From NCBI GenBank assembly GCA_951406725.2, contig OX597843.1, forward strand, positions 19,406,001 to 19,470,000: a DNA stretch of 64,000 bases, read 5' to 3'. The notes beneath the pieces were generated by a model that saw nothing but the letters and a program-made list of their open reading frames with translations, was not told where the DNA came from and searched no databases. Origin of the DNA: Octopus vulgaris. Taxonomy: Eukaryota. The position numbers and the translations under genes are program-made. The stretch's first letter is position 1. The number at the start of each line of letters is the position of its first letter. Shown here piece after piece: positions 5,100-61,559 of the stretch.

Positions 5100-5650
5100 C
5101 CTATGATCAAAAGTGTTCCAGCTGTGACCATTCTGTCTTTTATTCAGGCATAGGGTATCAAGGACTACATTATTTAATGTGTCTTTCTTCATTATTGCAT
5201 TTTAGCCCTGGACAGTCAGAATCCAATTGTCCCATGATCATAGATGTTCCAGTTGTGACCATCCTGTAGTCATAGTGTATCTAATGTGTCCTTCCTCATT
5301 GTTGTTTAGCCCCAGGTCAGTCTTTATCCAACTGAACTATGATCAAAGATGTTCCAGTTGTGACCATCCTGTCTTTTATACAAACACAGTGTACCTAGGA
5401 GTACATTATTTAATGTGCCTTTCTTCATTATTGCATTTTAGCCCTGGACAGTCAGAATCCAATTGTCCCATGATCATAGATGTTCCAGTTGTGACCATCC
5501 TGTAGTCATAGTGTATCTAATGTGTCCTTCCTCATTGTTGTTTAGCCCCAGGTCAGTCTTTATCCAACTGAACTATGATCAAAGATGTTCCAGTTGTGAC
5601 CATCCTGTCTTTTATACAAACACAGTGTACCTAGGAGTACATTATTTATT
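5100..5650. repeat. Intronic tandem repeat, 236-bp unit x2 built from related subunits
   Basis: ORFs at 5227 and 5463 start identically (236-bp offset). The motif ATGATCA(A/T)AGATGTTCCAG(C/T)TGTGACCAT recurs five times. Confidence 0.85.
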
Positions 5651-32547: not shown

Positions 32548-32647
32548 NNNNNNNNNNNNNNNNNNNNNNNNNNNNNNNNNNNNNNNNNNNNNNNNNNNNN
32601 NNNNNNNNNNNNNNNNNNNNNNNNNNNNNNNNNNNNNNNNNNNNNNN
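32548..32647. other. Assembly gap (100 N, size unknown)
   Basis: Run of exactly 100 N. Confidence 1.
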
Positions 32648-38600: not shown

Positions 38601-39200
38601 TGGTCTTTCGCCTCTTTATTCCACATTCTCCCCCTTCCTTCCTCGTTTCCCTTCTTCATATTCTCTTGCCACTTCTATAGTTCTTTATGTTTTATGACAT
38701 TTTCCTTCCCCACCTCCCATATTCAGCTCAATTTCTCCTGGTCTTTTGCCTCTTTATTCCACATTCCCCCCTTCCTTCCTCGTTTCCCTTCTTCATATTC
38801 TCTTGCCACTTCTATAGTTCTTTATGTTTTATGACATTTTCCTTCCCCACCTCCCAAATTCAGCTCAATTTCTCCTGGTCTTTCACCTCTTTATTCCACA
38901 TTCTCGCCCCTTCCTTCCTTGTTTCCCTTCTTCATATTCTCTTGCCACTTCTATAGTTCTTTATGTTTTATGACATTTTCCTTCCCCACCTCCCTTATTC
39001 AGCTCAATTTCTCCTGGTCTTTGGCCTCTTTATTCCACATTCTCCCCCCTTCCTTCCTCCATTCCTTTCTTCATATTCTCTTGCCACTTCTATAGTTCTT
39101 TATGTTTTATGACATTTCCCTTCCCCACCTCCCATATTCAGCTCAATTTCTCCTGGTCTTTCGCCTCTTTATTCCACATTCTCCCCCCTTCCTTCCTCCT
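32648..39200. repeat. 138-139-bp satellite array: about 7 inverted copies, then about 40 forward copies
   Basis: Monomer GACATTTTCCTTCCCCACCTCCCA(A/T)ATTCAGCTCAATTTCTCCTGGTC...CTATAGTTCTTTATGTTTTAT (starts at 33841, 33979, 34119, 34258). Orientation flips at about 33700. Confidence 0.97.
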
Positions 39201-39310: not shown

Positions 39311-39382
39311 AACTTTGGAATATAATAAAATCGAAAAGGTCGAAAGTGGAATATTTCAAGGACTTACTTATTTAGAGAAATT
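39311..39382 (+). CDS. LRR protein exon A (72 bp)
   Basis: TACAG|A ACT TTG...AAA TT|GTAAGT encodes TLEYNKIEKVESGIFQGLTYLEKL, a typical 24-aa LRR. Confidence 0.9.
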
Positions 39383-39616
39383 GTAAGTACAATTTTTGTT
39401 CATAATTTTTTTAACTAACGGAATATCACTAGAAATTCCATGTCCTCTCTTTCTTGCTATCTCTCCCTCTGCTTTTCTAATACATATTCTGTCATTATAT
39501 TTTCGTTTGTGATTGTATGAAGATGTGAACGAGTGTGTCTGTGTGTCCGTGTGTGAATAAACAAATGTTTTGCGTATGATAATGAACATATGCATGAGTG
39601 TGAACATGTCAACAAA

Positions 39617-39982
39617 GGCGCCGAGCTGGCAGAAACTATGCGCCAAGGTGGACTTCGTCTTTCAACCTTTTGGGGTCGATAAATTAAGCATTAATTGCGT
39701 ACTGTGACGATCTAATTAACGGGCCCAGTTGCCAACATTTTGGGGCCTTGTCCCTAAAGTAGAAACGAATGTTTTAAAGGCGGCGAGCTGGCAGAATTCT
39801 CAGCACAACGGGCGAAATGCTTAGCGGTATTTCGTCTGTCTTTATGTTCTGAGTTCAAATTCCGCCGAGACCGACTTTGCCTTTCAGGGTCGATAAATTA
39901 AGTAACAGTTGCAAACTGCGGTTGATCTAATCAACTGGCCCCCGCCCCAAAAATTTCGGGCCTTGTGCCTAGAGTAGAAATG
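39617..39982 (+). mobile_element. Two tandem SINE family 3 copies
   Basis: GGCGCCGAGCTGGCAGAA at 39617 and GGCGGCGAGCTGGCAGAA at 39779, both with GGTCGATAAATTAAG. Confidence 0.8.
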
Positions 39983-40072
39983 AACATGTATATCTGTATC
40001 TGCGTGTGTCGTGTCCATTCGTGTCTCTGCGTGTCTGTAAGAAAATACATACTTACAGAAAACCAAATTATC

Positions 40073-40624
40073 AGGGTTGGCCTCCCTTTGCAAATACTCC
40101 AAGGACACAGATATTGTGTCTAGCGCCAGCTAGAGACGAAGATCTCTTGGGGCTATAAAGCTACAGTAACACCCCCTCCCCAATGTGATTAGCCATGATA
40201 AGATGGCTTCTATACTTTACATTATCGAGCGATTACTGTTTCAATCTCATTTTGAGATTTAATTATGCTTACTGTTCGTTTTTCGACATCAGTGGCAGAC
40301 GCCATTAGAAAAACTTATATCTATTTGCAAAGGAGCCTTCACTTTCATCGCTACCTGGTGGTTACCGCCCGTTGACGAGGGACAACATTCCCGAAACTAG
40401 TTCGAGCGTATCACTCAGGCTTGCGAGGAAGGGATGGCCTCCCTTTGCAAATACTCCAAGGACACAGATATTGTGTCTAGAGCCAGCTAGAGACGAAGAT
40501 CTCTTGGGGCTATAAAGCTACAGTAACACCCCCTCCCCAATGTGGTTAGCCATGATAAGATGGCTTCTATACTTTACATTATCGAGCGATTACTGTTTCA
40601 ATCTCATTCTGAGATTTAATTATG
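40073..40624 (+). mobile_element. 1.5-copy tandem element (357-bp period) with hammerhead motif: Penelope pseudo-LTR or non-LTR retrozyme-like
   Basis: 40073-40267 is repeated at 40430-40624 with about 4 differences. The sequence between them carries a minimal type I hammerhead motif. Confidence 0.6.
40363..40410 (+). ncRNA. Minimal type I hammerhead ribozyme-like motif
   Basis: CGCCCG-TTGACGA-GGGA(caacat)TCCC-GAAA-CTAG-TT-CGAGCG: stem I with one mismatch, core with C3U, 4-bp stem II, palindromic mini stem III, GUU triplet. Confidence 0.55.
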
Positions 40625-41675
40625 TTTTTACACTGTTTTACACAAAGACAAAGTGTGAGCAATATACTTTCATCGAGAGTTACTTCACGCAGGGAATTAT
40701 AAGATTTTATTAATATTCATGGATAGCCTATTGCTTAGGACTCAGATATCACAAAGGAACATCTCTCGGCTAACACACACATACATATAATCACATACAC
40801 TCGCATTTACACTCAGACACATACGCATATATAATACAGGGACAGTTGTTTGTGTAGAAGGAATGTTGTTACAAAGCACATGGTTTAAAACACAGTATAA
40901 ATCTGTGGCCCGCCGTGCGCCTGACTTTTCTTTCTACCTCACGTCCAATCAATTCCAGTCTGCTGTATGATGCATGTATATGCATATATGGGGGTCTTTG
41001 TGTCTACTTTTGGCCCCAACTACCTCTTAACAAACAACTTCTATCCCTATTTATTTTCATCCTATCCTTTGTGTTTCTTCTTCTTCTTCTTCTTCTTCTT
41101 CTTCTCCCTCCTCCCTCCTCTTCTTCTTCGCGTTGTTCTGTTTCTTATTCGTATCCTCTTCCTCTCCTCCTCTTCCATCTTCTTCTTTTCCTTCTTCTTC
41201 TTCTCCTTCTATCTCTTCGTTTTCTCCTCCCTCTTCTTCTTCTTTCTCTTCTCCTCCTCCTCCCTCTCCTTCTTCTTCTTCTTCTTCTTCTTTTCTTCCT
41301 TCTTTTTCTTCTTGTCTTCCTTCTTTTTTCTTCTTCTTCTTCTTCTTCTTCTTCTTCTTCTTTCTTTTTATAATCCTTTAATTTCTCTAATTCTTCTTCC
41401 TCTTTTACTATTTCTTCTCCATCTTCTTCTCGTTGTTCTTCTTTGAGAGCTTATTCTTTTCCTTTTTCTTCTCTTGCCCCTTCTTCATTTTCTTGTTCTT
41501 TGCGTTTTACGTGTGCTTCTTTGACTTTTTCCTTCTCCTTATTCTTGTTTTTCTTCCTATTCTTCGTGTTTACCAATATGCCTTGTCATTGTTTATTTCA
41601 ATTCAGACCCACATTATTGCATATGTTGCCACAAATATTTTCCATGATTCTTACCCTTGTTCTTTATTGCTACAG

Positions 41676-41747
41676 ATATTTAAACGGAAATAATATTTCG
41701 AGTATTGAACAAGGAAGCTTCGAAGGTCTTCATCGATTGCTGCAATT
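41676..41747 (+). CDS. LRR protein exon B (72 bp)
   Basis: YLNGNNISSIEQGSFEGLHRLLQL; TACAG and GTAAGT; phase 2-2. Confidence 0.9.
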
Positions 41748-42401
41748 GTAAGTTCGTTCAGTCTCGATGATACTATATTATGAATGATGAATGTTATTCT
41801 TACATAACTTTTCCGTCCTCTCGTTTCACTTTCCCTTACTTTTTTAGCCCTCTAACTCATATTCTCTCCCAATATTGGTACAATATCTGCTTGGTTGTTT
41901 CTGAAGGCGAGTCGAACTGGGTTATTATATATGCCTGCATCAAAACTTATCAATGAAAATGTATCTGTGTAAGTTTATGTATATGTTAGTGTCTGCGTGT
42001 AAATATGACTATATTTTATATTCATTTTGTATTCTTTTCTATATCCTGTCCTTGTCTATTCATCTCCAACCTCCTCATTCGCTTCAAGTTACTTGTCTAA
42101 TAAAGCAACTTATAGATGGAGAAGTGAAATATATAAGTACTTAGAATATAGTAATATTTCTTTCTCTTTCTAAGCAATACTAGCTTTTAGCATTCGTAAC
42201 TTGCATCATTTTACTAGCTACCCTTTCTCTAATGAAATACATTCTCTCTCATCATATTTGCGCATTTTCTTTGTCTTCTTCGACTACTCCTTATTCAAAT
42301 AATTCTTGTTTTTCTTATTCCTGCTCTTTTTTCTTCTACTCCTTCTTCATCCTCCTCTTCTTTTCCGTCTTTTTACTCTTCTTCTTCTCTTATTATTATT
42401 A

Positions 42402-42477
<76 letters not shown>

Positions 42478-42534
42478 CATCATTATTATTATTATCGTCA
42501 TCATCATCATCATCATTATTATTATTATTATTAC

Positions 42535-42565
<31 letters not shown>

Positions 42566-42684
42566 ATTATTATTATTAGTATTATTATTTGTCGCAATCT
42601 CTCTTCTCACCCACTCTCCTATTTTATTATTACCCTGCCAATATTTTATTTGTAAACATTTATCGTCCATCTTTTCTGCTATAG

Positions 42685-42756
42685 GTCTCTTCACAGAAAC
42701 AGTATTTCGCATATTTCGAAAGAAATCTTCCAAGGTCTTCCAAGTTTAAAGGAATT
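42685..42756 (+). CDS. LRR protein exon C (72 bp)
   Basis: SLHRNSISHISKEIFQGLPSLKEL; TATAG and GTAAGT; phase 2-2. Confidence 0.9.
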
Positions 42757-43154
42757 GTAAGTTCGTATATTTTAGTTCTTACAACTTTATGAATGCAAAA
42801 TTTCTCTAAATTTAATCTCCTGGCCTTTCACGTTCATTCTCGGCTCTTTTGACTCTTACACATTTTCTGTCCTTAAATTTTAGCAATATTCTCTTGAATC
42901 TATAAAGATGAGCACAACTGGGATTTTATGTTTGCATCAAAGCATAGAAGAATTACATGTATGTTCCTATGCATGGGAATTCTGCCGTATGTGGCTTTGA
43001 CTTTAATAGTTCGGACCCATTTTTTACTCCTCCATTTTCATTCCATTATTGTTCTTTACTGGCTTCTCTTCCTCCAATTTTTTTCTATTCATTTCAATTT
43101 TATTCCTTCATCTTATTCATCAAATACAACCTATAAATGTAGAAGCAGAATATA

Positions 43155-43380
43155 CAATAAAATATTCTGAATATGCTCTTTTGTCACTTCCATTAGAACG
43201 TTGAAAAAGTAAGCGTTAAATTGAACTGCACTATTCATATCTTGAACTAAGAATAAGTACAAAGTAAAATTACAACCTGATTTTATAACGAGTTCGTGTA
43301 AGTAGTTTATCCCGCCCCCCTTCGGCTTTTGGTTCGTCCGATTGAAATAACCGCATTATTTATGAGATAACGCAAAATAA
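43155..43380 (-). mobile_element. Mariner 5' remnant (paralogue of 54946-56150)
   Basis: Minus strand gives MEVTKEHIQNILLY plus upstream sequence and TIR aligning to 55930-56150. Confidence 0.7.
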
Positions 43381-43774
43381 ATGCTTATAACAATTCTCAC
43401 TAATTCGTTTCTCTCTGTAAACGTCATCCGTTTACAGCACATCATTGCCCTCATAATATTCCACATTTTCATATGCTTCTGACTCTCTCGCGTTTTCCTT
43501 TTAAACGGATATTCTCTCTCACCATATTTGCACGTGAGTGTGTGTGAATATGTGTGTGAAATATGGGTATACCAGAACCACGTTTTTACAATCTGTACAT
43601 AAATGTATGCGTGTATGACTTTATATGCATATATGTGTATGTGACTAGGGGCATCTCTGTTATCTTCCCATCAGGTTCTCTCTATTTCAAAGTCCATTCT
43701 CAATCTTCGAAATATTCGTCTCCTTACCTTTAAATATATTTTCGGTTACCTTTTACCACTTTTCAGCAATCCTT

Positions 43775-44237
43775 TTCTTCTTCTTCTTCTTCTTCTTCTT
43801 CTTCTTCTTCTTCTTCTTCTTCTTCTTCTTCTTCTTCTTCTTCTTCTTCTTCTTCTTCTTCTTCTTCTTCTTCTTCTTCTTCTTCTTCGTGATTTTCTTC
43901 TTCTTCTTCTTCTTCTTCTTCTTCTTCATCTTCTTCGTGATTTTCTTCTTCTTCTTCTTCTTCTTCTTCTTCTTCTTCTTCATCTTCTTCGTGATTTTCT
44001 TCTTCTTCTTCTTCTTCTTCTTCTTCTTCTTCTTCTTCTTCTTCTTCTCCTTCTTCTTCTTCTTCTTCTTCTTCTTCTTCTTCTTCTTCTTCTTCTTCGT
44101 GATTTTCTTCTTCTTCTTCTTCATCTTCTTCGTGTTTTTTCTTCTTCTTCTTCTTCTTCTTCTTCTTCTTCTTCTACTTCTTCTTCTTCTTCTTCATGCT
44201 TTTCTTCTTCTTCTTCTTCTTCTTCTTCGTGCTTTTC

Positions 44238-44269
<32 letters not shown>

Positions 44270-44871
44270 CTTCTTCGTGCTTTTCTTCTTCTTCTTCTTC
44301 TTCTTCTTCGTGCTTTTCTTCTTCTTCTTCTTCTTCTTCTTCTTCTTCTTCTACTTCTTCATGCTTTTCTTCTTCTTCTTCTTCTTCTTCTTCATGCTTT
44401 TCTTCTTCTTCTTCTTCTTCTTCTTCTTCTTCTTCTTCGTGCTTCTTCTTCTTCTTCTTCTTCTTCTTCTTCTTCGTGCTTTTCTTCTTCTTCTTCGTGC
44501 TTTTCTTCTTCTTCTTCTTCTTCTTCTTCTTCGTGCTTTTCTTCTTCTTCTTCTTCTTCTTCTTCTACTTCTTCGTGCTTTTCTTCTTCTTCTTCTTTCT
44601 TCTTCTTCTTCTTCTTCTTCTTCTTCTTCGTGCTTTTCTTCTTCTTCTTCTTCTTCGTGATTTTCTTCTTCTTCTTCTTTTTCTTCATCTTCTTCGTCCT
44701 TTTCTTCTTCTTCTTCTTCTTCTTCTTCTTCTTCTTCTTCTTCTACTTCTTCTTCTTCTTCTTCTTCTTCTTCATGCTTTTCTTCTTCTTCTTCTTCTTC
44801 TTCTTCTTCTTCTTCGTTCTTCTTCTTCTTCTTCTTCTTCTTCTTCTTCTTCTTCTTCTTCGTGCTTTTCT

Positions 44872-44903
<32 letters not shown>

Positions 44904-45220
44904 TTCTTCTTCGTGCTTTTCTTCTTCTTCTTCTTCTTCTTCTTCTTCTTCTTCTTCGTGCTTTTCTTCTTCTTCTTCATGCTTTTCTTCTTCTTCTTAT
45001 TATTATTATTATTCGTGCTTTTCTTCTTCTTCTTCTTCTTCTTCTTCTTCTTCTTCTTCGTGCTTTTCTTCTTCTTCTTCTTCTTCTTCTTCTTCTCCTT
45101 CGTGCTTTTCTTCTTCTTCTTCTTCTTCTTCTTTTTCGTGCTTTTCTTCTTCTTCTTCTTCTTCTTCTTCTTCTTCTTCTTCTTCTTCTTCTTCTTCTTT
45201 TTCGTGCTTTTCTTCTTCTT

Positions 45221-45251
<31 letters not shown>

Positions 45252-46358
45252 TTCTTCGTGCTTTTCTTCTTCTTCTTCTTCTTCGTGCTTTTCTTCTTCT
45301 TCTTCTTCTTCTTCTTCTTCTTCTTCTTCTTCTTCTTCTTCTTCTTCGTGCTTTTCTTCTTCTTCTTCTTCTTCTTCTTCTTCTTCTTCTTCTTCTTCTT
45401 CTTCTTCTTCTTCTTCTTCGCGCTTTTCTTCTTCTTCTTCTTCTTCTTCTTCGTGCTTTTCTTCTTCTTTTTCTTCTTCTTCTTCTTCTTCTTCTTGCTT
45501 TTCTTCTTCTTCTTCTTCGTGCTTTTCTTCTTCTTCTTCGTGCTTTTCTTCTTCTTCTTCTTCTTCTTCTTCTTCTTCTTCTTCTTCTTCTTCGTGCTTT
45601 TCTTCTTCTTCTTCTTCTTCTTCTTCTTCTTCTTCTTCGTGCTTTTCTTCTTCTTCTTCTTCTTCTTCTTCTTCTTCTTCTTCTTCTTCTTGCTTTTCTT
45701 CTTCTTCTTCTTCTTCTTCTTCTTCTTCTTCTTCTTCTTCTTCTTCTTCTTCTTCTTCTTCTTCTTCTTCGTGCTTTTCTTCTTCTTCTTCTTCTTCTTC
45801 TTCTTCTTCTTCTTCTTCTTCTTCTTCTTCTTCTTCTTCGTGCTTTTCTTCTTCTTCTTCTTCTTCTTCTTCTTCTTCTTCTTCTTCTTCTTCTTCTTCT
45901 TCTTCTTCTTCTTCTTCTTCTTCTTCGTGCTTTTCTTCTTCTTCTTCTTCTTCTTCTTCTTCTTCGTGCTTTTCTTCTTCTTCTTCTTCTTCTTCTTCTT
46001 CTTCTTCTTCTTCTTCTTCTTCTTCTTCTTCTTCTTCTTCTTCGTTTCTTTCTTCTTTCTTCTTCTTCTTCTTCTTCTTCGTGCTTTTCTTCTTCTTCTT
46101 CTTCTTCTTCTTCGTGCTTTTCTTCTTCTTCTTCTTCTTCTTCTTCTTCTTCTTCTTCTTCTTCTTCTTCTTCTTCTTCTTCTTCTTCTTCTTCTTCTTC
46201 TTCTTCTTCTTCTTCGTGCTTTTCTTCTTCTTCTTCTTCTTCTTCGTGCTTTTCTTCTTCTTCTTCTTCTTCTTCTTCTTCTTCTTCTTCTTCGTGCTTT
46301 TCTTCTTCTTCTTCTTCTTCTTGTTCTTCTTGTTCTTCTTGTTTTTCTTCGTGCTTTT

Positions 46359-46389
<31 letters not shown>

Positions 46390-46460
46390 TTCTTCTTCGT
46401 GCTTTTCTTCTTCTTCTTCTTCTTCTTCTTCTTCTTCTCCTTGCTTTTCTTCTTCTTCCT
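43775..46460. repeat. About 2.7-kb interrupted (TTC)n array
   Basis: (TTC)n runs punctuated by GTGCTTT/GTGATTT. Confidence 0.97.
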
Positions 46461-46547
46461 GTACTTTTTCTCCTAGTGCTTCTTTTCTTCTTCTTCGTTT
46501 TATCCCTCTTCCATAACAAATCTTATCATCATTCTTTACTGCTACAG

Positions 46548-46619
46548 ATATTTATACAGGAATAATATTTCGAGCATTGAACAAGGAAGCTTCGAGGATC
46601 TTCCTAGACTAAAGATATT
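46548..46619 (+). CDS. LRR protein exon D (72 bp)
   Basis: YLYRNNISSIEQGSFEDLPRLKIL; TACAG and GTAAGT; phase 2-2. Confidence 0.9.
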
Positions 46620-46879
46620 GTAAGTTCTTCAGTTTTATTAAGAAATTATGACTTTTCATATCTTTTCTGTAATTTAATTCCACTTTTCTCTCGCTCTTTT
46701 TATCACACTAACTCATAATCTGCTCCCATATTGGTAATATATCTGTATGATTACTTCTTCTAATTCGTCTTCTTCGTCTTCTTTCTCTTCTTTGTTTCCG
46801 CGCTCTTTCTCTTCTCTATTGCTCTTCTTCTTCTTGTAGTTATTATTGTTACTGATGTTGCTATTGCTCTTCATTATTA

Positions 46880-46947
<68 letters not shown>

Positions 46948-47152
46948 TATCATGTTTGTCTTTTTTTTCCTCTTTTTCTTTTTCATGCCGTCATTTTCCT
47001 TGCTCGTGCTTTTCATCTTTCGTTTCTTCTGATCCATCTTCTTCATCTTCTTTTGCCCTTCTTGTTATGCTTCTTCATCATCATCTTCTTGGCCTCCTTT
47101 TATCAGAAATCTTTCATTTACACTTTCCTTTATACATTGTTTTATGTTACAG

Positions 47153-47224
47153 ATATCTGAAGAATAATACGATCGAAAAAATCGATCAGCGAATCTTCCA
47201 CAACCTTACCGGTTTAAAGATATT
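47153..47224 (+). CDS. LRR protein exon E (72 bp)
   Basis: YLKNNTIEKIDQRIFHNLTGLKIL; TACAG and GTAAGT; phase 2-2. Confidence 0.9.
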
Positions 47225-48369
47225 GTAAGTTCAATTTTTGTTGGTAATATTTTATTAATGTACTACCTCTATAATTTATATATCTTCTCTTTTTTACTCA
47301 GTCTCACTCTCTCTCTCTCTCTCTCTTTCTATCTAACTTATTTTCAAGATTCTGTCTAAGTGATTATGATTCTATGTGAATACGCATCTTTGTATTTCTG
47401 TGTGTGTGAATGTTCCTCAAGTTCCTATGCGTGTGTAAGAACAATCATAGTCATTAGCAGTAAATAATGATCTTAATTATTTCTCACGGTTTTTAAATCA
47501 TTCCCTCCTCCAATGAAATATCTTAACGACATGCGTACACACAGCCTGGCAAACGTACCAACACACAATGGGAGCAACACATTTTTTCATGGAATGTTAG
47601 AAATTTTACCATGAGAAAATAAAACATTTATGCAACTACAGGGATTTTGTATTATGGAAATGAAGTGAATATATACAATTAAATATACATATATATATAT
47701 ATATATATGTGTGTGTTGTGTGTGTGTGTGTGTGTGTGTGCGTGTAAACAAACATATATTCGCTCTCATCAAATTTGCGGTTGAGTGTTTTTTCATTGTA
47801 ACAATGTGAGTGTGTAGGCGTAACAGCACAGTGCAAAACTGTATGTGCATGTGTGTGTATCTGACAGAGTGTATCTGGGATTTTCGTTTCCAACTTGTTC
47901 TCTTTCTCCAGATTACCTTCTCATACTCCGAGTTATTAGTTAAAATTTCTGTTTTAATCTTATTTATCGTGTTCGTTTTAAAGACCTTCTTCATCTCCGT
48001 CTTCTGCTTTCTTCTGTTCTTCTTCTTCTTATTCTTCTTCTAACGACTACTACATTTTCTACTACTACTGCTACTACATTTTCTACACCTGTATCTCACC
48101 CTTCCTAATTCTCATCGTATTCTTCTTTCTCCTTTTCTCCGTCGTCACCATTCTTCCTTCCCCTAGTTTAATTCTCCTCACTCAATATTAACATATTATA
48201 TTCATCTGCTGCATCATTATACAATCAGCAATATCATCCAACGATAATTCTAATTACTTATTGTCTTCCCATTTTGCTTTTCTTCCAACTTTTGTCTTCT
48301 CTAATTCATATGCTCTCTCTCTCTCTCTCTCTCTCTCAGTTTCTGTTTAAATCTATTTTAGAATTTTTG

Positions 48370-49680
48370 AGTATATGTGTGAAGGTATGCGTGTGAAGGT
48401 ATGTGTGTGAAGGTATGCGTGTGAAGGTATGCGTGTGAAGGTATGTGTGTGAAGGTATGTGTGAGAAGGTATGCGTGTGAAGGTATGCGCGTGAAGGTAT
48501 GTGTGTGAAGGTATGTGTGTGAAGGTATGCGTGTGAAGGTATGCGTGTGAAGGTATGCGTGTGAAGGTATGCGTGTGAAGGTATGTGTGTGAAGGTATAT
48601 GTGTGAAGGTATGCGTGTTTGAGTATATGTGTGAAGGTATGCGTGTGAAGGTATGCGTGTGAAGGTATGTGTGTGAATGTATGTGTGTGAAGGTATGCGT
48701 GTGAAGGTATGCGCGTGAAGGTATGTGTGTGAAGGTATGTGTGTGAAGGTATGCGTGTGAAGGTATGCGTGTGAAGGTATGCGTGTGAAGGTATGCGTGT
48801 GAAGGTATGTGTGTGAAGGTATATGTGTGAAGGTATGCATGTTTGAGTATATGTGTGAAGGTATGCGTGTGAAGGTATGCGTGTGAAGGTATGTGTGTGA
48901 AGGTATGTGTGTGAAGGTATGCGTGTGAAGGTATGTGTGTGAAGGTATGTGTGTGAAGGTATGCGTGTGAAGGTATGCGTGTGAAGGTATGTGTGTGAAG
49001 GTATGCGTGTGAAGGTATGTGTGTGAAGGTATGCGTGTGAAGGTATGCGTGTGAAGGTATGTGTGTGAAGGTATGTGTGTGAAGGTATGCGTGTGAAGGT
49101 ATGTGTGTGAAGGTATGTGTGTGAAGGTATGCGTGTGAAGGTATGTGTGTGAAGGTATGTGTGTGAAGGTATGCGTTAGAAGGTATGTGTGTGAAGGTAT
49201 GCGTGTGAAGGTATGCGTGTGAAGGTATGTGTGTGAAGCTATGTGTGTGAAGGTATGCGTGTGAAGGTATGCGTGTGAAGGTATGCGTGTGAAGGTATGT
49301 GTGTGAAGGTATGTGTGTGAAGGTATGCGTGTGAAGGTATGTGTGTGAAGGTATGTGTGTGAAGGTATGTGTGTGAAGGTATGCGTTAGAAGGTATGTGT
49401 GTGAAGGTATGCGTTAGAAGGTATGTGTGTGAAGGTATGCGTGTGAAGGTATGTGTGTGAAGGTATGCGTTAGAAGGTATGTGTGTGAAGGTATGTGTGT
49501 GAAGGTATGCGTGTGAAGGTATGCGTGTGAAGGTATGTGTGTGAAGGTATGTGTGTGAAGGTATGCGTGTGAAGGTATGCGTGTGAAGGTATGTGTGTGA
49601 AGGTATGCGTGTGAAGGTATGTGTGTGAAGGTATGCGTGTGAAGGTATGTGTGTGAAGGCATGCGTGTGAAGGTATGTGT
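48370..49680. repeat. 14-bp minisatellite GTGAAGGTATG(C/T)GT, about 93 copies
   Basis: Directly visible. Confidence 0.97.
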
Positions 49681-50315
49681 GGGTGCATCAACATCAGCGA
49701 TAGATATCCTCGGCAAAATTCTATGTGTGTATGCTCATATGTGTGACTGTACTATTTATATTCATATTTATTTTCTTCTCCCCTATTCTGATTTTCCTTG
49801 TTATTCTCCTCATCCTCCTTCTATTATGTCTTTCCTTCCTGCATCTTTCGTCTTCCTCACAATTTCTCTCTACATCCTTCATCTTCACCATCTTGTGTTT
49901 CTTCTCCGTATTTAAAGATTTTCAGCTGATCTTTCCATTTCTAATTCGTCGTTTTCACTTCATCGTATTTTACTCGCACTTTTATAAATCCATACATTCC
50001 ACCACTTATTTCCCTTCACCATCCTCAGTAATTCCGCTCAATTACTCATTGTGCATCGCCTCTCTATTCCACCTTCTGCTCCCGCTTCCTGTACTACCCA
50101 CCTCCTATCCACTTCATACTTCCGCTCTTCCTCTCCTCTCAGTTCCTACATCCCCTCCTCTTCTATCCCCCTCTCCAAATCGTCCCCTTCATTAACTTTG
50201 TCATACTTTTCTTTCATAGCCCTCTTTTCTTCATTTGAGTTTAAAACTCCAAATTTAATGTTTTATCCGACAACGTTTCTGTATTATTTCTTTTATAATC
50301 TGTTTCATGTAAAAG

Positions 50316-50387
50316 AACATTTGAGCATAATAAGATCGAGAAAGTCGAACGTGGAACCTTCCAAAGTCTTACCAATTTACAGGAATT
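50316..50387 (+). CDS. LRR protein exon A' (72 bp, atypical acceptor)
   Basis: TFEHNKIEKVERGTFQSLTNLQEL; acceptor CATGTAAAAG, donor GTAAGT; paralogue of exon A. Confidence 0.8.
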
Positions 50388-52139
50388 GTAAGTTCAATTT
50401 TCGTTGATATTTTATTAACGTAATATCACTAGAAAGTTCATGTCTTCACTTTCTTAATTTTTCTTTCTGCATTTCTAATTTATATTCTACCATTATATCT
50501 CCGTTTGTATGGTTATGAAGACGTGTAGGAGTGTATATGTCTCTGTGTGAATGAATAAATGTGTTGTGCATGAGAGTATTATTTTATGCAAACATATATA
50601 TCTTTATCTGTGTGTGGAGGGTTCATTTCATATCTCTGTCGGTGTCTGAGTGGATCTGTAACAGAAATCATAGTTATTAACAGAAAATCGTGCGACTAAA
50701 AACATTTTTACACGGTTTTCCTATCATTCTTTTACCCAAATGGAATACATTTCTCACATGCATACACACACACACGCGCGCAGATATGCATATATGCAGA
50801 CACAGATGTTAGTGTAGTAACATGTTTGTTACATACTACATGGTTCAAGACAGAAGACTGAGTGTCACACCGTGGATATGCGCATGACGTTCCCTTTTTT
50901 CTCGGGTTAAGCAATTCCTTTTGAGTGGGTTTGACAGACAGAAATTGATAGAGTCTGCTGTATGGTACATGTATATACATATATGTGCATCTTTGTGTCT
51001 GTTTGTGTCCTCAACCATCTCTTAACTAATTGCGCTGGTACTTCCTACGCCGTAACTTACCGGTTCAGCAAAACTGACCAATAGAATAAGTAAGAAGCCT
51101 TCAGAAATAAGTACAGGTGTTCGATACATTCGACTAAAGTCTTTCAAGGTGGTGTTCTAGGATGGCCGAAGTGTAATGAGTGAAATAAGTAAAAGATAAA
51201 GATAGGCATATATAATATGCATCAGTGAAATGACAGAATGATCTAACGTAGGACTTCTTCAAATATTCAACTGAGAAAGCATATTTTACACCTTTGAATG
51301 ATTGTAAGGAATACGCTGTATATTAATTCTATCATCTCATCAATACTCTATGCTTGTGGCATAAAGAAACAATTTTAGTGTTTTGCAATAAAAAAACCCA
51401 TCGTTTCATTAATTCTCTCCTATTTCTCTGTGCATAAACTCTTCAGATTCTGTGAAATTTCAGGTGAATATTAAATGTCTGGACTATTCCACACTCTCAT
51501 GTTATACCGATATTTCTACATTTTCATCTACTTTTTTTACCTTTCTTCAGCATCTCCATTTCCTATTTCTTTCTTTTTCCTTTTCGCTTGCCTTTCTTCT
51601 TTTCATTCGTTCTTCTTTTTCTTCACTTCTTTCTTTATTTTCCTTTCCTTTCTTTTCCTCGATATCCTCGTCATCATCTTCAACGTCTTCATCACTGTCA
51701 TCACCAAGATATTCAGTCATTATTGTCATCAGTATTAAGCTAGCATTCATATCCGAATCTCCAACATCATCATCATTAACATCATTTTTAGTGTCCTAAT
51801 CGTTATCGCTTTGAGCATTATCCTTGTCATTACTCTCCTCCTCCTCCTCCTCCTCCTCATCATCATCATCATCATCATTATCATCACCATGGCATCGATT
51901 TATTATTGTAATCTTACTTTCCTTATACTTAATCATACATAATTGTCTCACTAATTCTTGATATTTTCATTACCTTCTTACTCCACTTGTTTCTCATTAA
52001 TACCCTCTTTCCGCTCCTCCTCCTCCTCCTTCTCATCGTCATCATCGTCATCGCAATCACCATCATCATCATTATTATTGTCATCATCACCGTGATTTCC
52101 TCAACGTATTATTCATCACTAATCATTCTCGTCAGTATC

Positions 52140-52180
<41 letters not shown>

Positions 52181-52806
52181 TAAATAATAAATATAATGAT
52201 TATAATCAACATCATCATCATCATCATCATCATCTTCTTCTTCATCTACAGAATTGTTAGGTTATTCATTGATATTTACATTAACACGAACATCATCAAC
52301 ATTCTCATCCTGTTCCGCATTATTCGTCGTCATTAATTTCATAATTATCATCATCAACATTATCATCAGAGTCATCAACATCATCATAGTAATATTCCCC
52401 TTCAGCTTTATCATCATCTCCATCATCATCATCATATATCATCGTCATCATCATCATGATTATCATCCTCTGACATTCCTTCCTTCATCGAGACTCTTTT
52501 AATATATGACCAGAAGTCTTTACAATTTCTACTCGAACGAATCCATTGTCTCAATCGTAACACCTTTCCCTTCATCTTTTCCGCCTCACCCATTCCTTTT
52601 ATACCTCACTTTTGTTCTTCTCCACCTCCTCCTTTTCACCCTCTTCTTCCCCTTCAACATCATAATCTATGTCATCATCATCATCATAACATTTTTCTCA
52701 TTATTATTCTTATACTTATTATTTTGTGCCTTCTTCATGAGCGTCGTTATCGTGGTGTCGTTTTCCTTCTCTGCACCTTCTTCTTCTTCATCTTCTTCTT
52801 CTTAAT

Positions 52807-52849
<43 letters not shown>

Positions 52850-53121
52850 AACTTCTGCTTCTTTTTTCCTTCATATTTTACCTCTTTCTTATTCTTCTCC
52901 TTTACTTCTATTTCTTCTTCTTCTTCTTCTTCTTCTTCTTCTTCTTCTCCCTCTTCTTCTTCTTCCTACATCTTCTCTTTCAGCCTCGTCGTCTTCTCTT
53001 CAGTTTTTCTTTCTGTTATTCTTGTTTGCCATAATCTGTCTTGTCATCGTTTGTTTTATTTCAATATGTAATCAAACACATTTTCCATAAACACTGTTAT
53101 CCTGTTCCTTTATTGCTTCAG

Positions 53122-53193
53122 GTATTTAAATGGAAATAATATTTCGAGTATTGAACAAGGAAGCTTCCAAGGCCTTTACCGATTGCAGCAATT
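53122..53193 (+). CDS. LRR protein exon B' (72 bp)
   Basis: YLNGNNISSIEQGSFQGLYRLQQL; TTCAG and GTAAGT. Confidence 0.9.
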
Positions 53194-53359
53194 GTAAGTT
53201 CGTTCACTTTTGTTAAGATTACATTATGGACGCTATTTTTATGTAACTTTGCTGTGCCCTCGTTTCTCTTTCCCTCGCTCTTTTTTTCACTCTAACGCAT
53301 ATTCTGTTCCCATATTGGTACAATATATGTTTGAACTTTTCTAAAGCCGTGTTAGACAA

Positions 53360-53409
<50 letters not shown>

Positions 53410-53496
53410 TACTAGTCTGCATCAAGACTTATTAACAAAAACGAAAATGTATACCGGTATGTTCGTGTAAATGTTAGTGTTTGCATGTACATCTGA

Positions 53497-53825
53497 GCCC
53501 CCCCTCGGTCATGATACTGACTATTTAGAAAATTACCCTCCCAGGCACAAGTCCAGGCAAGGTTGTTTATGGAAGGCCAGCAGTCGCCCATGCATGCCGC
53601 CTCCTCTCCCCATGCCACAAGTGTTATCTAAGGGAAAGGCAAAGGGGCCGATACAGCTTGGCACCTGTGACGTCGCAACTCATTTCTACAGCTGAGTGAA
53701 CTGGAGCAACGTGAAATAAAGTGCCTTGCTCAAAAACACAGCACGCATCACGGTCCGGGATTCGAACTCAACAACCTCATGATCGTAAGCTCGACGCTCT
53801 AACTACCGAGCCATGCGCCTTCACA
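53497..53825 (-). mobile_element. tRNA-derived SINE family 2, full-length
   Basis: Aligns to 3405-3740. Absent from the paralogous position after exon B, so it probably inserted after the duplication. Confidence 0.85.
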
Positions 53826-54438
53826 CATGAAACTATATAATTTGTATTAACATATTTTATTTTATTTCTTTCCTACCGGTTGCCCTTTTCCGTTTTCTTT
53901 GCCAGTTCCTTCTCCGACTTATTCATTCACTTCATTTTATTATTCTAATACTTACAATATAGTCACGTATTTCTTTCTCCTTCCTCCAACACTTATAATT
54001 TGCATCGATTTCCCAGATATCCTTTCACTGATATTAGATTTTTAAAATATCTGATGTGATCGTTTTCAACTTCCAAATTATTCGTTGTCATCTTTTAAGT
54101 ACTTTCTCTGAATTTATTTTCTTTAACATCTTAGCTTTAAACATATCTTCTTCCCGTTTTCTTCTTCTTCTTCATCCTTCTTCTCTTTCTTCTTCTTCTT
54201 CTCCTCCTCCATCTCCTTCCTCTTCTTCTTCTCCTTCTTCTTCTCCTCCTTCTTCTCCTCCTTCTTCTTCTTCTTCTTCTTCTTCTTCTTCTTCTTCTTC
54301 TTCTTCTTCTTCTTCTTCTTCTTCTTGTTTCTCGCTGTCTGTCTTCTCATCCATTCTCCCATGTTAAAGAAAAGTTTTTCATATACTTTTACAAATGATT
54401 TCTATATTAATATTTATCATATTTGTTTTCTGCTGTAG

Positions 54439-54510
54439 ATCTCTTCACATAAATAATATTTCGCATATTGAGAAAGGTATCTTCCAAGATCTTCCAATTC
54501 TAAAGAAACT
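54439..54510 (+). CDS. LRR protein exon C' (72 bp)
   Basis: SLHINNISHIEKGIFQDLPILKKL; TGTAG and GTAAGT. Confidence 0.9.
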
Positions 54511-54945
54511 GTAAGTTTGCTTACTTTTCTCCATACAACTTCATGAATGTAATATTTCTATAAATTTTATATAATCTGGTTTCTTTTTCACTCCTCGTTA
54601 TTTGCCCTCTTACTCATATTCTGTCCCTATATTTACGTGATATTGTTCTGATTGTGCATGAAGATAAATGCAACTGAGATTTGATTTATGTTGGCATCAA
54701 AACATATTAATAGCTATGTATTATGTATGTTCCTATGTATTTGAATGTCGACGTATATATATTTGAATAAATAATTCGTGTCCATATGTTTTACCGCCTC
54801 TGCTTTTCATTCCCATCTTGAATTTTGTTTTTCTCCTTCTTCTTAACTCTCCGCTATTTCTTCAAATCTTTCTCTTCCTTTCCAGTTTCTTCAGTCACTT
54901 TCGTTTATTTATCTAATACAACCTGCAGAATTTGAAGCGGATCAT

Positions 54946-56150
54946 ATTGGGTTATTCCTGGAATGATGTGTTTTTTTTTATAATTCTTATATTTTTCAAT
55001 ATTAAGATAAACAAAGTTCATTTAAAATATGCACTCTTTCATTTTCTGCAATGCTCCTCCACCTATCTGGTAGAAAAATCAAGGCTCCTCTTCCAAAATG
55101 CATTTCTCCGTGGCGAAATATACTCCTCAAATAATCATATAACCCCGTCTACAGGATTCCTATTATTTCCGTCCAAAAGATTTTGAAGACCGCGGAATAA
55201 ATGATAATCACATGGTGCAGTGCCCGACGAATATGTTGGCTGGGGCATCGTTTCCCATTCAAACTGCTCCAGCCTTTGGAATGTCATCATTGATGTGTGT
55301 GGCCGAACATTATACTGATGGAAGAACGCCTTTCATCTTGAAATCGAAGGCGGGTGATTAAGCCCCTCAAGCTGCTCGCAGTAAATCTTTGTTAATGTTT
55401 GGCTTCTGTCGAAAGAGGTAACAATATTTTGCGCGGCTGAAGTCCTTGGGTGCCGGTATTTTTCCTTACCCACTGTCTTCGGCGCTTCACATTTTTTATA
55501 GAGAACCTATTTCCCGTCACCAGTCACTATTCAGTCCAAACAAGGTTCATGCATGAGACGTAGCAGCAAGGAAGAGGACACATTCGCGCACTGCGCGCGA
55601 TTAGAGTCGAATTATTTGGGAGAAATCTACTGATCCAATTCCTTGACTTTTCCAATGGAATGCAGGTGTCGATGAATGGTTGATTGACCAAATCTATTCT
55701 TCTCTGCTGGTTCCCTAACAGTTACAATGGGATTTTCTTCCAACAAAGTTTGCAGGAGGTCCTCGTCGAGCTCTACAGATCTTCCAGGATGAGGCTCGTT
55801 TTCAAGGCTATAGTTTCCGGCTCGGAATATCTGGAACTACCGTTGACACTGGCTTACCTTTATTGTCCCATCTCCATAGATTGCATCAATATTCTTCGCA
55901 GTTTCCTCTATGTTGTTGAAGTCGTAATGCAAAACATGCCGAATATGCTCCCTTGTCACTTCCGGTATAGCTTTGAAACATAACTGTTAGATCGAGCAGC
56001 ACTCTTCAAAACTCGCACTAAGAATAAGTACAATGTAAAGTTACCACCTGTTTTTATTGCAAATTGATGCAAGTGGTTTATCCCCTCCTTCACCAATTTT
56101 TCTTTCATCCTATTGAAAAACCGCATTATATACGAGACGAGTCAATATAA
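54946..56150 (-). mobile_element. Degraded near-full-length mariner transposon
   Basis: Minus strand retains IVTGDGK*VL (about 55500-55530) and YSSGTAPCDYHLFRGLQNLLDG (about 55170-55235), decayed forms of IVTGDEKW and YSPDLAPxD. Degenerate TATTG... TIRs; about 1.2 kb. Confidence 0.85.
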
Positions 56151-56514
56151 ATATTTACAATAAAGTCACCTATTGGGTTCTCTCTGTAAACATCGCCAGC
56201 TTACAGTACGAATAATTTGCTTCTTTTCCCTCATAAAATTCCACCACAAATATATTTCTAAATATTTCATGTTTTCTTATGTTTCTGATTCTCTCGACTT
56301 TTCTTTTTAAAGTAATCAACTTTCCCGCCATATTTACATGAGTGTGTGTGTGACCGTGTGTGTGTGAACGTGTGTGTGTGAACGTGTGTGTGCGTGAACG
56401 TGTGTGTGTGTGAAAGTGTGTGTGAACGAGTGTGTGTGAACGTGTGTGTGTGTGAACGTGTGTGTGTGAACGTGTGTGTGGGTGTGTTGGTAGAGCTGAA
56501 ACACATTTTGATAT

Positions 56515-58660
56515 CTTCTCTTCTCCTCATCCTCCTTTTTCTGCTTCCTCTTCTCCTCATCCTCCTTTTTCTGCATCCTTCTTCTCCTCATCCTCCTTTT
56601 TCTGCTTCTTCTTCTCCTCATCCTCATTTTTCTTGTTCTTCTTCTCCTTATCCTCCTTTTTCTTCTTCCTCTTCTCCTCATCCTCCTTTTTCTGCTTCTT
56701 CTTCTCCTCATCCTCCTTTTTCTTCTTCTTCTTCTCCTCATTCTCCTTTTTCTGCTTCTTCTTCTCCTCATCCTCCTTTTTCTACTTCCTCTTCTCCTCA
56801 TCCTCATTTTTCTACTTCCTCTTCTCCTCATCCTCCTTTTTCTGCTTCTTCTTCTCCTCATCCTCCTTTTTCTTCTTCTTCTTCTCCTCATCCTCCTTTT
56901 TCTTCTTCTTCTTCTCCTCATCCTCCTTTTTCTGCTTCTTCTTCTCCTCATCCTCCTTTTTCTGCTTCCTCTTCTCCTCATCCTCATTTTTCTTCTTCTT
57001 CTTCTCCTTATCCTCATTTTTCTTCTTCTTCTTCTCCTCATCCTCCTTTTTCTTCTTCTTCTCCTCATCCTCCTTTTTCTGCTTCTTCTTCTCCTCATCC
57101 TCCTTTTTCTACTTCTTCTTCTCCTCATCCTCCTTTTTCTGCTTCTTCTTCTCCTCATCCTCCTTTTTCTTCTTCCTCTTCTCCTCATTCTCCTTTTTCT
57201 GCTTCTTCTTCTCCTCATCCTCCTTTTTCTTCTTCTTCTTCTCCTCATTCTCCTTTTTCTTCTTCTTCTCCTCATTCTCCTTTTTCTGCTTCTTCTTCTC
57301 CTCATCCTCCTTTTTCTACTTCCTCTTCTCCTCATCCTCATTTTTCTTCTTCTTCTCCTTATCCTCATTTTTCTTCTTCTTCTTCTCCTCATCCTCCTTT
57401 TTTCTTCTTCCTCTTCTCCTCATCCTCCTTTTTCTGCTTCTTCTTCTCCTCATCCTCCTTTTTCTTCTTCTTCTTCTCCTCATCCTCCTTTTTCTTCTTC
57501 TTCTTCTCCTCATCCTCCTTTTTCTGCTTCTTCTTCTCCTCATCCTCCTTTTTCTACTTCCTCTTCTCCTCATCCTCATTTTTCTTGTTCTTCTTCTCCT
57601 CATCCTCCTTTTTCTGCTTCCTCTTCTCCTCATCCTCCTTTTTCTGCTTCCTCTTCTCCTCATCCTCCTTTTTCTGCTTCCTCTTCTCCTCATTCTCCTT
57701 TTTCTGCTTCTTCTTCTCCTCATCCTCCTTTTTCTACTTCCTCTTCTCCTCATCCTCCTTTTTCTGCTTCTTCTTCTCCTCATCCTCCTTTTTCTACTTC
57801 CTCTTCTCCTCATCCTCATTTTTTCTTCTTCTTCTTCTCCTCATCCTCCTTTTTCTGCTTCTTCTTCTCCTCATCCTCCTGTTTCTACTTCCTCTTCTCC
57901 TCATCCTCCTTTTTCTTCTTCTTCTTCTCCTCATCCTCCTTTTTCTACTTCCTCTTCTCCTCATCCTCCTTTTTCTGCTTCCTCTTCTCCTCATCCTCCT
58001 TTTTCTGCTTCTTCTTCTCCTCATCCTCCTTTTTCTACTTCCTCTTCTCCTCATCCTCCTTTTTCTGCTTCTTCTTCTCCTCATCCTCCTTTTTCTGCTT
58101 CCTCTTCTCCTCATCCTCCTTTTTCTGCTTCCTCTTCTCCTCATCCTCCTTTTTCTGCTTCTTCTTCTCCTCATCCTCCTTTTTCTGCTTCTTCTTCTCC
58201 TCATCCTCCTTTTTCTGCTTCCTCTTCTCCTCATCCTCCTTTTTCTTCTTCTTCTCCTTATCCTCCTTTTTCTTCTTCTTCTTCTCCTCATCCTCCTTTT
58301 TCTTCTTCTTCTTCTCCTCATCCTCCTTTTTCTTCTTCTTCTCCTTATCCTCCTTTTTCTTCTTCCACTTCTCCTCATCCTCCTTTTTCTGCTTCTTCTT
58401 CTCCTCATCCTCCTTTTTCTGCTTCCACTTCTCCTCATCCTCCTTTTTCTGCTTCTTCTTCTCCTCATCCTCCTTTTTCTGCTTCTTCTTCTCCTCATCC
58501 TCCTTTTTCTGCTTCTTCTTCTCCTCATCCTCCTTTTTCTGCTTCTTCTTCTCCTCATCCTCCTTTTTCTGCTTCCACTTCTCCTCATCCTCCTTTTTCT
58601 GCTTCTTCTTCTCCTCATCCTCCTGTTTCTGCTTCCTCTTCTCCTTATCCTCCTTTTCTT
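56515..58660. repeat. 30-bp pyrimidine minisatellite, about 70 copies
   Basis: Unit CTTCTCCTCATCCTCCTTTTTCTGCTTCTT with 27-bp variants. Confidence 0.97.
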
Positions 58661-59891
58661 GTTCTTTATCCTTTTTTTAGAAGATGACATAAATGTTTAT
58701 TTCTGCTTTGTCCTTTCTACTTTTTCTCCTTCTCCTTCTTCCTCTCCTTTTTCTACTTCCTTTTGTTCTCCCTCTATATTATCATCTTCAAGTTCTTTTA
58801 CTTTTTCTTTACTCCTTGCTCTACTTCTTCTTCGTCTCGTAGTTGTTGCATCTTTCTTCTTCTTCTTCTTCTTCTTATTATTATTATTATTATTATTTCT
58901 TCTTCTTCTTCTCCTTCTTTTTCGTCTTTTTCTACATCTTCTCCTTTTCTTTCTTTCTTCTTCTTCTTCTTCTTCTTTTTCTTCCTCTTCTTCTTCCTTC
59001 TTCTTCTTCTTCTTTTTCTTCTTCTTCTTCCTTCTTCTTCTTCTTATTCTTCTTCTTTTTCTTCTTCTTCTTCCTTCTTCTTCTTCTTCTTCTTCTTCTT
59101 CTTCTTCTTCTTCTTCTTCGTTTACTTTTGTTTCTTTTTCGTTTCTTACTTTGCACCTTCTTCGTCTAAATCTTTTTCTTAATCTTTCATTTCTTCTTCG
59201 TCTGCTTCGACTCCTTCTTATTCTTCCCCTCCTTTTTCTTCTTCTTCACCTTTTGTTGTTGCTGTCTTGTTGTTGTTATTGTTTTTTTATCGTTATTTTT
59301 GTTGTTGTTGTAATTGTCCTTCTCTTTCGTCTTTACCTGTTTTACCCGTTCTTTTTTTTCCTTTCTTCTATTTCTTCTTTTTATCTCTTCCTTATCGTTT
59401 TTTCACCTCCTTATTTGTCATCTTTTCGTTCCTCATCAGTTTATTCTTGTTTTCTTCTTTTTCGTCTTCTTCTTACTTCTTTTTCTTCTTCTGTACTTCT
59501 TTATTTTTGTTGTGTTTGTCGGTGTTGAAGTTGTTGATTTTAATGCTCGTTTTCTTTGTTTACCTTTTACTTACTTTTCATCTTTTTTTACTCTTTTTCT
59601 TCCTATTATTTTTTCTCCTTTCTCTTTTTCATCTTTTCATTGTTTTCTTCTACTTCTTCCTAAACTTATTTTCTACTTCTTCAACATCTTGTTCTTTTTC
59701 TCATACTTCTTTTTCTTCTTTTACTTTTTTCTTTTCTTCTCCCTTTTTTGTCTTCTTTTCTTCGTTATCTTCGTTTTCCTCATAATATTTCTTCCCATAG
59801 TTTGTCTCATTATTTCAAACACACAGTATTCAATAATTTATCACAAATATTTTCAATGACAAAATGTTATCATCGTTCTTTACTTCTACAG

Positions 59892-59963
59892 ATATCTTTA
59901 CCGAAATAATATTTCAAATATTGACCAAGGAAGTTTTCAAAGTCTTCATAGATTACGGATGTT
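59892..59963 (+). CDS. LRR protein exon D' (72 bp)
   Basis: YLYRNNISNIDQGSFQSLHRLRML; TACAG and GTAAGT. Confidence 0.9.
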
Positions 59964-61107: not shown

Positions 61108-61217
61108 TTACTACTACAACTACTACACCTTCTACTTCTGTATATCACCCTTCCTAATTCTCATCGTATTATTCTTCCTCCTCCTCCTCTTCTTCTTTCT
61201 CTTCTTCCCCTACCCCT

Positions 61218-61250
<33 letters not shown>

Positions 61251-61265
61251 ATACTACTACACCTT
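60745..61265. repeat. About 180-bp unit x3 with embedded (CTA)n
   Basis: ACACCTTCTACTTCTGTATATCACCCTTCCTAATTCTCATCG... recurs at about 60759, 60943 and 61125. Confidence 0.9.
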
Positions 61266-61485
61266 CTACTATCTCATCCTTCCTAATTCTCATCGTATTC
61301 TTCTTTCTCCTTTTCTCCGTCGTCACCATTCTTCCTTCCCCTAGTTTAATTCTCCTCACTCAATATTAACATATTATATTCATCTGCTGCATCATTATAC
61401 GATCAGCAATATCATCCAACGATAATTCAAATTACTTATTATCTTCCCATTTTGCTTTTCTTCCAAATTTTGTCTTCTCTAATTC

Positions 61486-61528
<43 letters not shown>

Positions 61529-61559
61529 GTTTCTGTTTAAATCTATTTTAGAGTGTTTG

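Follow-up and report, generated by a model that had tools for sequence, protein, structure and literature searches.

The window analysed here is a stretch of 64,000 nucleotides of the Octopus vulgaris genome (contig OX597843.1 of GenBank assembly GCA_951406725.2; G000:C30:19406001-19470000), and it contains nine leucine-rich repeat (LRR) exons of a large receptor gene, at window positions 39311, 41676, 42685, 46548, 47153, 50316, 53122, 54439 and 59892. Positions without a prefix are those of the window throughout. An earlier note on this DNA had described the exons as single-LRR units of symmetrical phase, and this description is borne out: all nine are 72 bp long with AG..GT borders, have phase 2-2 and no stops, and encode one LRR of 24 amino acids apiece. 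None of 200 block shuffles yielded even one such exon, and a position weight matrix detected no tenth LRR exon in the window (the nine score 89-115, the best background 2). The donor is GTAAGT in all nine. The variable motifs around xLxxN and the sequons NIS, NNT and NLT listed in the earlier note are likewise present; the NNT sequon uses the ladder Asn, which is normally buried. Eight exons end in TT and one in CT, seven begin with A and two with G, and a leucine is therefore formed at every join, again as the note had it. Such joins are no evidence of shuffling, because they reflect a phase-2 intron within the conserved leucine of duplicated exons and are common to many LRR genes (PMC6642158 and PMC11378527, accessible text). 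The exons fall into five classes that run a-b-c-d-e / a-b-c-d:

39311..39382, plus strand: LRR exon of class a, 15th of 25 in the inferred gene
41676..41747, plus strand: LRR exon of class b, 16th
42685..42756, plus strand: LRR exon of class c, 17th
46548..46619, plus strand: LRR exon of class d, 18th
47153..47224, plus strand: LRR exon of class e, 19th
50316..50387, plus strand: LRR exon of class a, 20th; the sole AAG acceptor of the nine, CAG in the twin gene described below
53122..53193, plus strand: LRR exon of class b, 21st; 72 of 72 bases the same as twin exon 12
54439..54510, plus strand: LRR exon of class c, 22nd
59892..59963, plus strand: LRR exon of class d, 23rd; the gene runs on past the window

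We consider it probable that these exons encode repeats 15-23 in the LRR arm of an octopus receptor of the adhesion GPCR (G-protein-coupled receptor) class, an arm likely of 25 repeats whose length varies by inherited gain and loss of exons. The analysis took in 1.46 Mb of sequence surrounding the window on C30, together with 0.2 Mb from C31. The gene continues downstream on the same strand, with no gap between the array and the exons for the GPS and the seven-transmembrane (7TM) domain:

G000:C30:19473849 and 19474576, plus strand: LRR 24 and 25
G000:C30:19476186, plus strand: cap LRR
G000:C30:19481743, plus strand: LRRCT
G000:C30:19483984-19485913, plus strand: Cys-rich domain
G000:C30:19487709-19492820, plus strand: SEA-like domain
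G000:C30:19499926-19501611, plus strand: HormR
G000:C30:19502948-19508323, plus strand: GAIN
G000:C30:19508721, plus strand: GPS
G000:C30:19509678-19523863, plus strand: 7TM, multi-exon, with the stop at 19525345

The GPS and 7TM exons bear out the proposal that the repeats form the ectodomain of a receptor. Both gene ends lie outside the window, as had been noted: the 3' end is 55 kb beyond its edge, and the array begins at a gap followed by a satellite.

The nearest proteins are models from Octopus sinensis and O. vulgaris that bear the name 'adhesion GPCR G6-like', with 93-97% identity across the 3' exons; the nearest annotated model begins only at repeat 24. In the nearest model (P0001, 93% identical) the Pfam domains LRR_8, GPS (E 1e-11) and 7tm_2 (E 2.9e-37) score above the cut-off and GAIN (E 3.6e-4) and HRM below it; all transmembrane exons were recovered in the window copy. 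The best PDB matches by sequence are ADGRG2 and ADGRG6. The predicted model aligns to the Adgrg6 ectodomain with Z 26.1 (root-mean-square deviation, rmsd, 15.9 over 401 aligned residues), the GAIN fold matches Adgrg6 and BAI3, and the SEA fold was recognised on the paralog P0033 (Z 9.5, rmsd 3.8, 110 residues aligned). The window gene is an ADGRG-like adhesion GPCR (class B2) of the octopus expansion. The earlier note had pointed instead to receptors of the LGR, RXFP and GRL101 type, which have a rhodopsin-class 7TM and, in RXFP and GRL101, an LDLa motif. Although 72-bp LRR exons are shared with LGR, the 7TM of the window gene is secretin-class and accompanied by GAIN and GPS, and no LDLa motif was found in three regions of 200-264 kb. 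The LGR/GRL101, TLR and Slit-like readings are ruled out by the GPS and the secretin-class 7TM exons.

Two parts of the ectodomain depart from the usual pattern or resist assignment. The GPS reads Y-L-T rather than the canonical H-L/I-S/T in the window copy, the twin and the O. sinensis model, and this replacement of H-L-T suggests, from the sequence, that self-cleavage may be reduced. The Cys-rich domain has ten invariant cysteines and a C-N end, and may resemble a Ly6/uPAR domain (ten cysteines, CC..CN end, three-finger fold). Pfam gave Activin_recp and UPAR_LY6_2 at a weak E of about 6.5, with low predicted local distance difference test (pLDDT) scores there; a Foldseek search with the Cys-rich/SEA model gave no match at E 0.001, a three-finger fold was absent among the matches listed for that model, and a PDB sequence search with the Cys-rich domain gave 0 matches. 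Atypical GPS sites can still cleave (PMC9539791, accessible text), and the non-canonical site is thus not defining for membership among the adhesion GPCRs.

Upstream of the array the assembly is interrupted:

32548..32647, no strand: 100-N scaffold gap, with an unrelated m-AAA protease gene to its left and the receptor gene to its right
32648..39200, no strand: 138-bp intron satellite of about 47 units

A signal/LRRNT exon, with a leader that is hydrophobic on visual inspection, and 14 LRR exons lie on a contig 324 kb upstream, which breaks off at a gap within this 138-bp satellite, there of 20 units (G000:C30:19111575-19114328). A genome search placed this satellite at the window contig end, the upstream contig end and an intron of the twin (3 units) only. 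In the same search 2 of 36 signal-exon matches and 2 of 40 GAIN-exon matches were of this gene type. Most likely, the 5' half of the gene, with its signal exon and 14 LRRs, is the upstream contig, split off by scaffolding, which would give 25 LRR exons and a cap in all. On the far side of the gap, window 1-29780 holds the 3' part of the m-AAA protease gene (Peptidase_M41), which we take to be of AFG3L2/paraplegin type; its contig is likely misplaced inside the receptor gene. The satellite is inverted over the first 1.05 kb of the window contig (32648-33703) and then flips, as a contig-end fold-back or a real inversion would produce.

The evidence for inherited change in arm length comes from a twin gene with 16 LRR exons at G000:C30:18470009-18552773. 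Colinearity links its 5' part to the upstream contig and its 3' part to the window. Coding identity to the window copy is 97%, with a 2.8% difference in the 3' coding exons, a synonymous divergence (dS) of 0.11 in the LRR exons and a difference of about 7% in introns, as measured on local intron alignments. Absent from the twin are 30,856 bp holding nine exons, with the frame kept. More specifically, twin intron 5 is a mosaic in which the sequence of long-copy intron 5 switches to that of intron 14 at a 3-bp microhomology, ACA. In a tree of all 41 exons with their flanks, the 16 twin exons pair one-to-one with long-copy exons (15 of the 16 pairs starred), and the nine extra long-copy exons have longer branches, which indicates that the twin lost nine exons rather than that the long copy recently gained them. 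This mapped deletion shows a germ-line change in LRR number, and arm length probably varies by inherited, frame-preserving gain and loss of whole exons. The earlier note had proposed diversification by exon skipping or by change in copy number; the latter stands, in frame, with 25 against 16 repeats in the twin and 5 to 25 across the cluster, while skipping is represented by models of relatives.

The classes of the 25 LRR exons run, in order, abcde abcde abce abcde abcd ab, and intron blocks were duplicated together with the exons. An intron segment with a 14-bp minisatellite occurs twice at about 90% identity (47998-50647 and 61165-64000), ahead of two class-a exons. Class-specific signatures are kept on the concave face, for example Y-N-G-N in class b and Y-Y-R-N in class d, and 12 of the 25 repeats have a sequon just past the ladder Asn. 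The proportion of nonsynonymous change on the concave face over pooled synonymous change (pN/pS) comes to 0.58 (0.36-0.93) across the 16 twin pairs, to 0.53 (0.39-0.74) across 12 pairs within the gene, and to 0.03-0.06 at scaffold positions (pN 0.004 against pS 0.10); in the neighbouring paralogs the concave ratio is 2.09 for B1 (10 pairs), 3.36 for E (7 pairs) and 1.96 for D against B1 (5 pairs). These values all carry some bias: pairs were chosen greedily by nearest identity, NG86 counts were left uncorrected, introns were aligned locally and conversion tracts were kept in. This comparison suggests that the window subfamily holds its binding face steady, whereas its cluster neighbours diversify theirs. 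The active diversification of the binding face that the earlier note had envisaged finds no support in the window gene, with 0.53-0.58 in recent pairs and a tree-wide omega of about 1, where a diversifying LRR receptor of immune type would be expected to have a concave-face dN/dS above 1.

The gene belongs to a large family. Elsewhere in the cluster, genes carry 21, 14, 5 and at least 2 LRR exons, the last being cut by one of the region's six gaps. Matches to marker exons in the genome number at least 36 for signal/LRRNT and at least 40 for GAIN, clustered on C29-C31, and at least 65 for the last 7TM exon (weak matches included). Named homologs above 60% identity are all octopod, and among 77 candidates for short LRR-only relatives there was none at E 1e-15. 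Models from abalone, scallop, whelk and tubeworm have the same LRR/Cys-rich/SEA/GAIN/7TM layout in the same order, but carry only about 2-4 LRR motifs, and their GPS is the canonical H-L-T, which indicates that the architecture is old and the long arm an octopus addition; 11 cysteines are invariant in an alignment of 22 proteins.

Several paralogs show features of their own. Those at G000:C30:18377591-18431000 and 18563000-18774700 (21 and 14 LRR exons) end after HormR without GAIN or 7TM, so that their product would be secreted, and both have an excess of amino-acid change on the concave face. At G000:C30:18637630 (minus strand) the AG acceptor of an LRR exon is gone, and the exon would be skipped with the frame intact. 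The convergent paralog D (G000:C30:19583286-19597059, minus strand) has its Cys-rich exon pair in three tandem copies, one of them broken, and exon duplication thus extends beyond the LRRs. A gene-conversion tract is suggested by two GAIN exons (such as L004:3468-3573 and 5230-5390), which match at 95-99% among paralogs in which identity in the adjoining GAIN exon is about 79%. The last 7TM exon recurs, at 85-95% identity, at G000:C31:1512616, C8:118786593, C1:216684012, C7:649872 and C14:83094. A search of C31:1330001-1530000 for a third full gene copy found only the orphan last 7TM exon, with no upstream exons within 180 kb. The O. bimaculoides model P0029, also of this family, carries a Death domain at its C-terminus, behind the 7TM.

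Among known systems, vertebrate ADGRG6/GPR126 and ADGRG2 share the SEA-HormR-GAIN-7TM core and give the best sequence and fold matches. However, ADGRG6 has CUB and pentraxin domains in place of the LRRs and the 10-cysteine domain of the window gene, which also differs in a GPS without His and in its dozens of paralogs. Invertebrate adhesion GPCR groups that fall outside the vertebrate subfamilies have been described (Scholz et al., PMC6900090, accessible text). In the accessible text of Ritschard et al. 2019 (PMC6408891), group 3 consists of octopus-expanded adhesion GPCRs with GPS and adhesion 7TM, tandem clusters and signs of positive selection; LRRs occur in 5 of 22 sequences, one sequence has a Death domain, and expression is mostly in axial nerve cord, suckers, skin and gills. 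The window family likewise shows octopus expansion, tandem clustering, some LRRs and a Death-bearing relative, and the window gene fits group 3 by these shared features, a placement made without a tree including their sequences. The one-LRR-per-exon structure, the differences in repeat number, the Cys-rich/SEA module and the Y-L-T GPS are outside the description in that text. Where exons are gained, lost and skipped, the nearest parallels, on the accessible text of both papers, are the brown-algal LRR-ROCO genes (PMC11378527), whose exons are 72 bp and phase 2, and NLRP3 (PMC6642158): both have one LRR module per symmetric exon, exon gain and loss, and LRR skipping. They differ in being cytosolic and of unrelated families, and skipping and positive selection on the concave face are reported for them. 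A literature search found no paper on the exon architecture of this octopus family, subscription papers and the Ritschard supplements being outside the search, and the SPLASH preprint PMC10370119 contains no mention of LRR, adhesion or GPCR.

Several points weigh against a 25-repeat receptor of steady binding face. The 5'-3' join is an inference across two intervening contigs. In the window copy a GAIN exon lacks 1 bp of a T run, the sole copy-specific frame break among 20 3' exons checked (other phase flags occur in both copies and stem from greedy donor choice), and with this frameshift the copy may be a pseudogene or make a secreted form. The evidence of transcription is a single contig of low depth, found in one of two presumed RNA runs, and concerns GAIN rather than LRR exons: the contig, from run X1, has a 292-base GT-AG intron between GAIN exons removed and carries two bases diagnostic of the window copy, which makes transcription of this copy likely, if weakly so. 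Models of skipped isoforms exist in relatives. Finally, tree-wide codon fits, made on six codons with more parameters than sites, gave an omega of 0.97-1.4 for concave against 0.46-0.56 for convex positions (for scaffold positions the fit never left its initial value in 3 of 4 sets and was set aside); the binding face is thus not more constrained over the whole history, and the exon classes may have diverged adaptively early on. The strongest competitor, which we nevertheless hold to be rather unlikely, builds on the frameshift: the window copy would be a young pseudogene or a source of a secreted-decoy ectodomain, and the 16-repeat twin the working receptor. The window copy is also further from the O. 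sinensis model in amino-acid identity (93.4% against 97.2% for the twin), and the neighbours B1 and E are likewise without GAIN and 7TM. Yet none of the 25 LRR exons has a stop or a lost splice site, scaffold positions are strongly conserved (the pN and pS given above), the spliced contig carries window-copy bases, and the same T-run deletion recurs in a second paralog, as a homopolymer error or conversion tract would give. In reads from runs X5 and X6 the T run has a T insertion, which may derive from paralogs; no contig bridges the site decisively with window-copy bases. It is improbable, moreover, that a single locus was assembled twice and that the 25- and 16-repeat genes are its alleles, with exon number varying between individuals. 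Colinearity does extend over about 115 kb of the twin span with flanks, mostly at 88-99%, one GAIN stretch is identical over 301 bases, and gaps are frequent in the region (six). However, the divergence in LRR exons and introns is well above the heterozygosity of 1.22% given for O. vulgaris (PMC10700109, accessible text), the downstream neighbours differ, and in the last 7TM exon the twin is nearer the O. sinensis model (99%) than the window copy (92%). On account of this divergence and the different neighbours, the two are more likely paralogs.

Splicing offers another route to diversity. We doubt that stochastic or regulated skipping of LRR exons, comparable to that in NLRP3 and brown-algal ROCO, yields many isoforms and is the main source of binding diversity, although the frame is kept at all joins and each exon boundary splits a concave strand, so that skipping an exon would create a new surface. 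Among relatives, the RefSeq models vary in length by steps of 24 aa, with one to four repeats dropped and most kept: one O. bimaculoides locus has one 617-aa form and three 593-aa forms, each without a different divergent repeat, and two O. sinensis loci have 13 and 6 listed forms. These models are computed, from other subfamilies than the window gene, and several units of the 13-form locus look hybrid, as mis-mapping of near-identical exons would give; RefSeq computed models usually rest on RNA-seq introns. The donors of the whole gene (GTAAGT in 24 of 25) and the window acceptors (YAG in 8 of 9) appear constitutive. Occasional in-frame LRR skipping may occur in the window gene. Dscam-type genes have mutually exclusive exon clusters with one exon used at a time; the window gene shares with Dscam and VLR a modular variable ectodomain, but gives no evidence of such clusters, and the relatives' models retain most repeats. 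VLR has an incomplete germ-line gene, flanking donor cassettes, somatic assembly and a GPI stalk. That the octopus exons are donor cassettes copied into an expressed locus by VLR-like somatic assembly is hardly credible: the many similar single-LRR units with variable residues around xLxxN invite the comparison drawn in the earlier note, but each unit has its own acceptor and donor, the exons are spliceable within one linear, complete gene ending in 7TM, and their order is kept one-to-one in the twin.

Under the preferred reading, of a germ-line receptor with an arm of inherited length, the array would have grown by duplication of five-exon blocks, with nine exons then lost in the twin. As each class keeps its own concave-face residues, the arm may be a long rod, glycosylated and multivalent, that binds or serves as a spacer; repeat number would tune its reach and avidity, with signalling presumably through the 7TM as in ADGRG6. 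Our best guess for the ligand, from family-level expression, is a partner on cell surfaces or in the matrix of arm, skin or gill. More speculatively, and with little probability, a two-tier variable recognition system may have arisen from a molluscan adhesion GPCR of 3-4 LRRs: germ-line cassette gain and loss would set arm length (5 to 25), stochastic skipping would multiply isoforms per cell, hypervariable, partly secreted paralogs would give specificity, and a five-unit-periodic receptor would read a repeating ligand by avidity. If this is true, arms and skin could use such a system to recognise non-self or to avoid self. Arm length appears, however, to change by ordinary inherited deletions rather than by antibody-like shuffling, and hypervariability is more a property of the neighbours than of the window gene.

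As it stands, this is a gene-family result with no new mechanism, in which germ-line change of LRR number is shown. The family has so far been known from fragmentary models only, and annotation captures its LRR arms incompletely. The twins, set apart by a mapped in-frame deletion of nine exons, provide a clean natural pair for the effect of LRR number on adhesion-GPCR binding and signalling. If skipping should prove common, cephalopods would have a candidate variable receptor system, relevant to immunity and to arm self-recognition.

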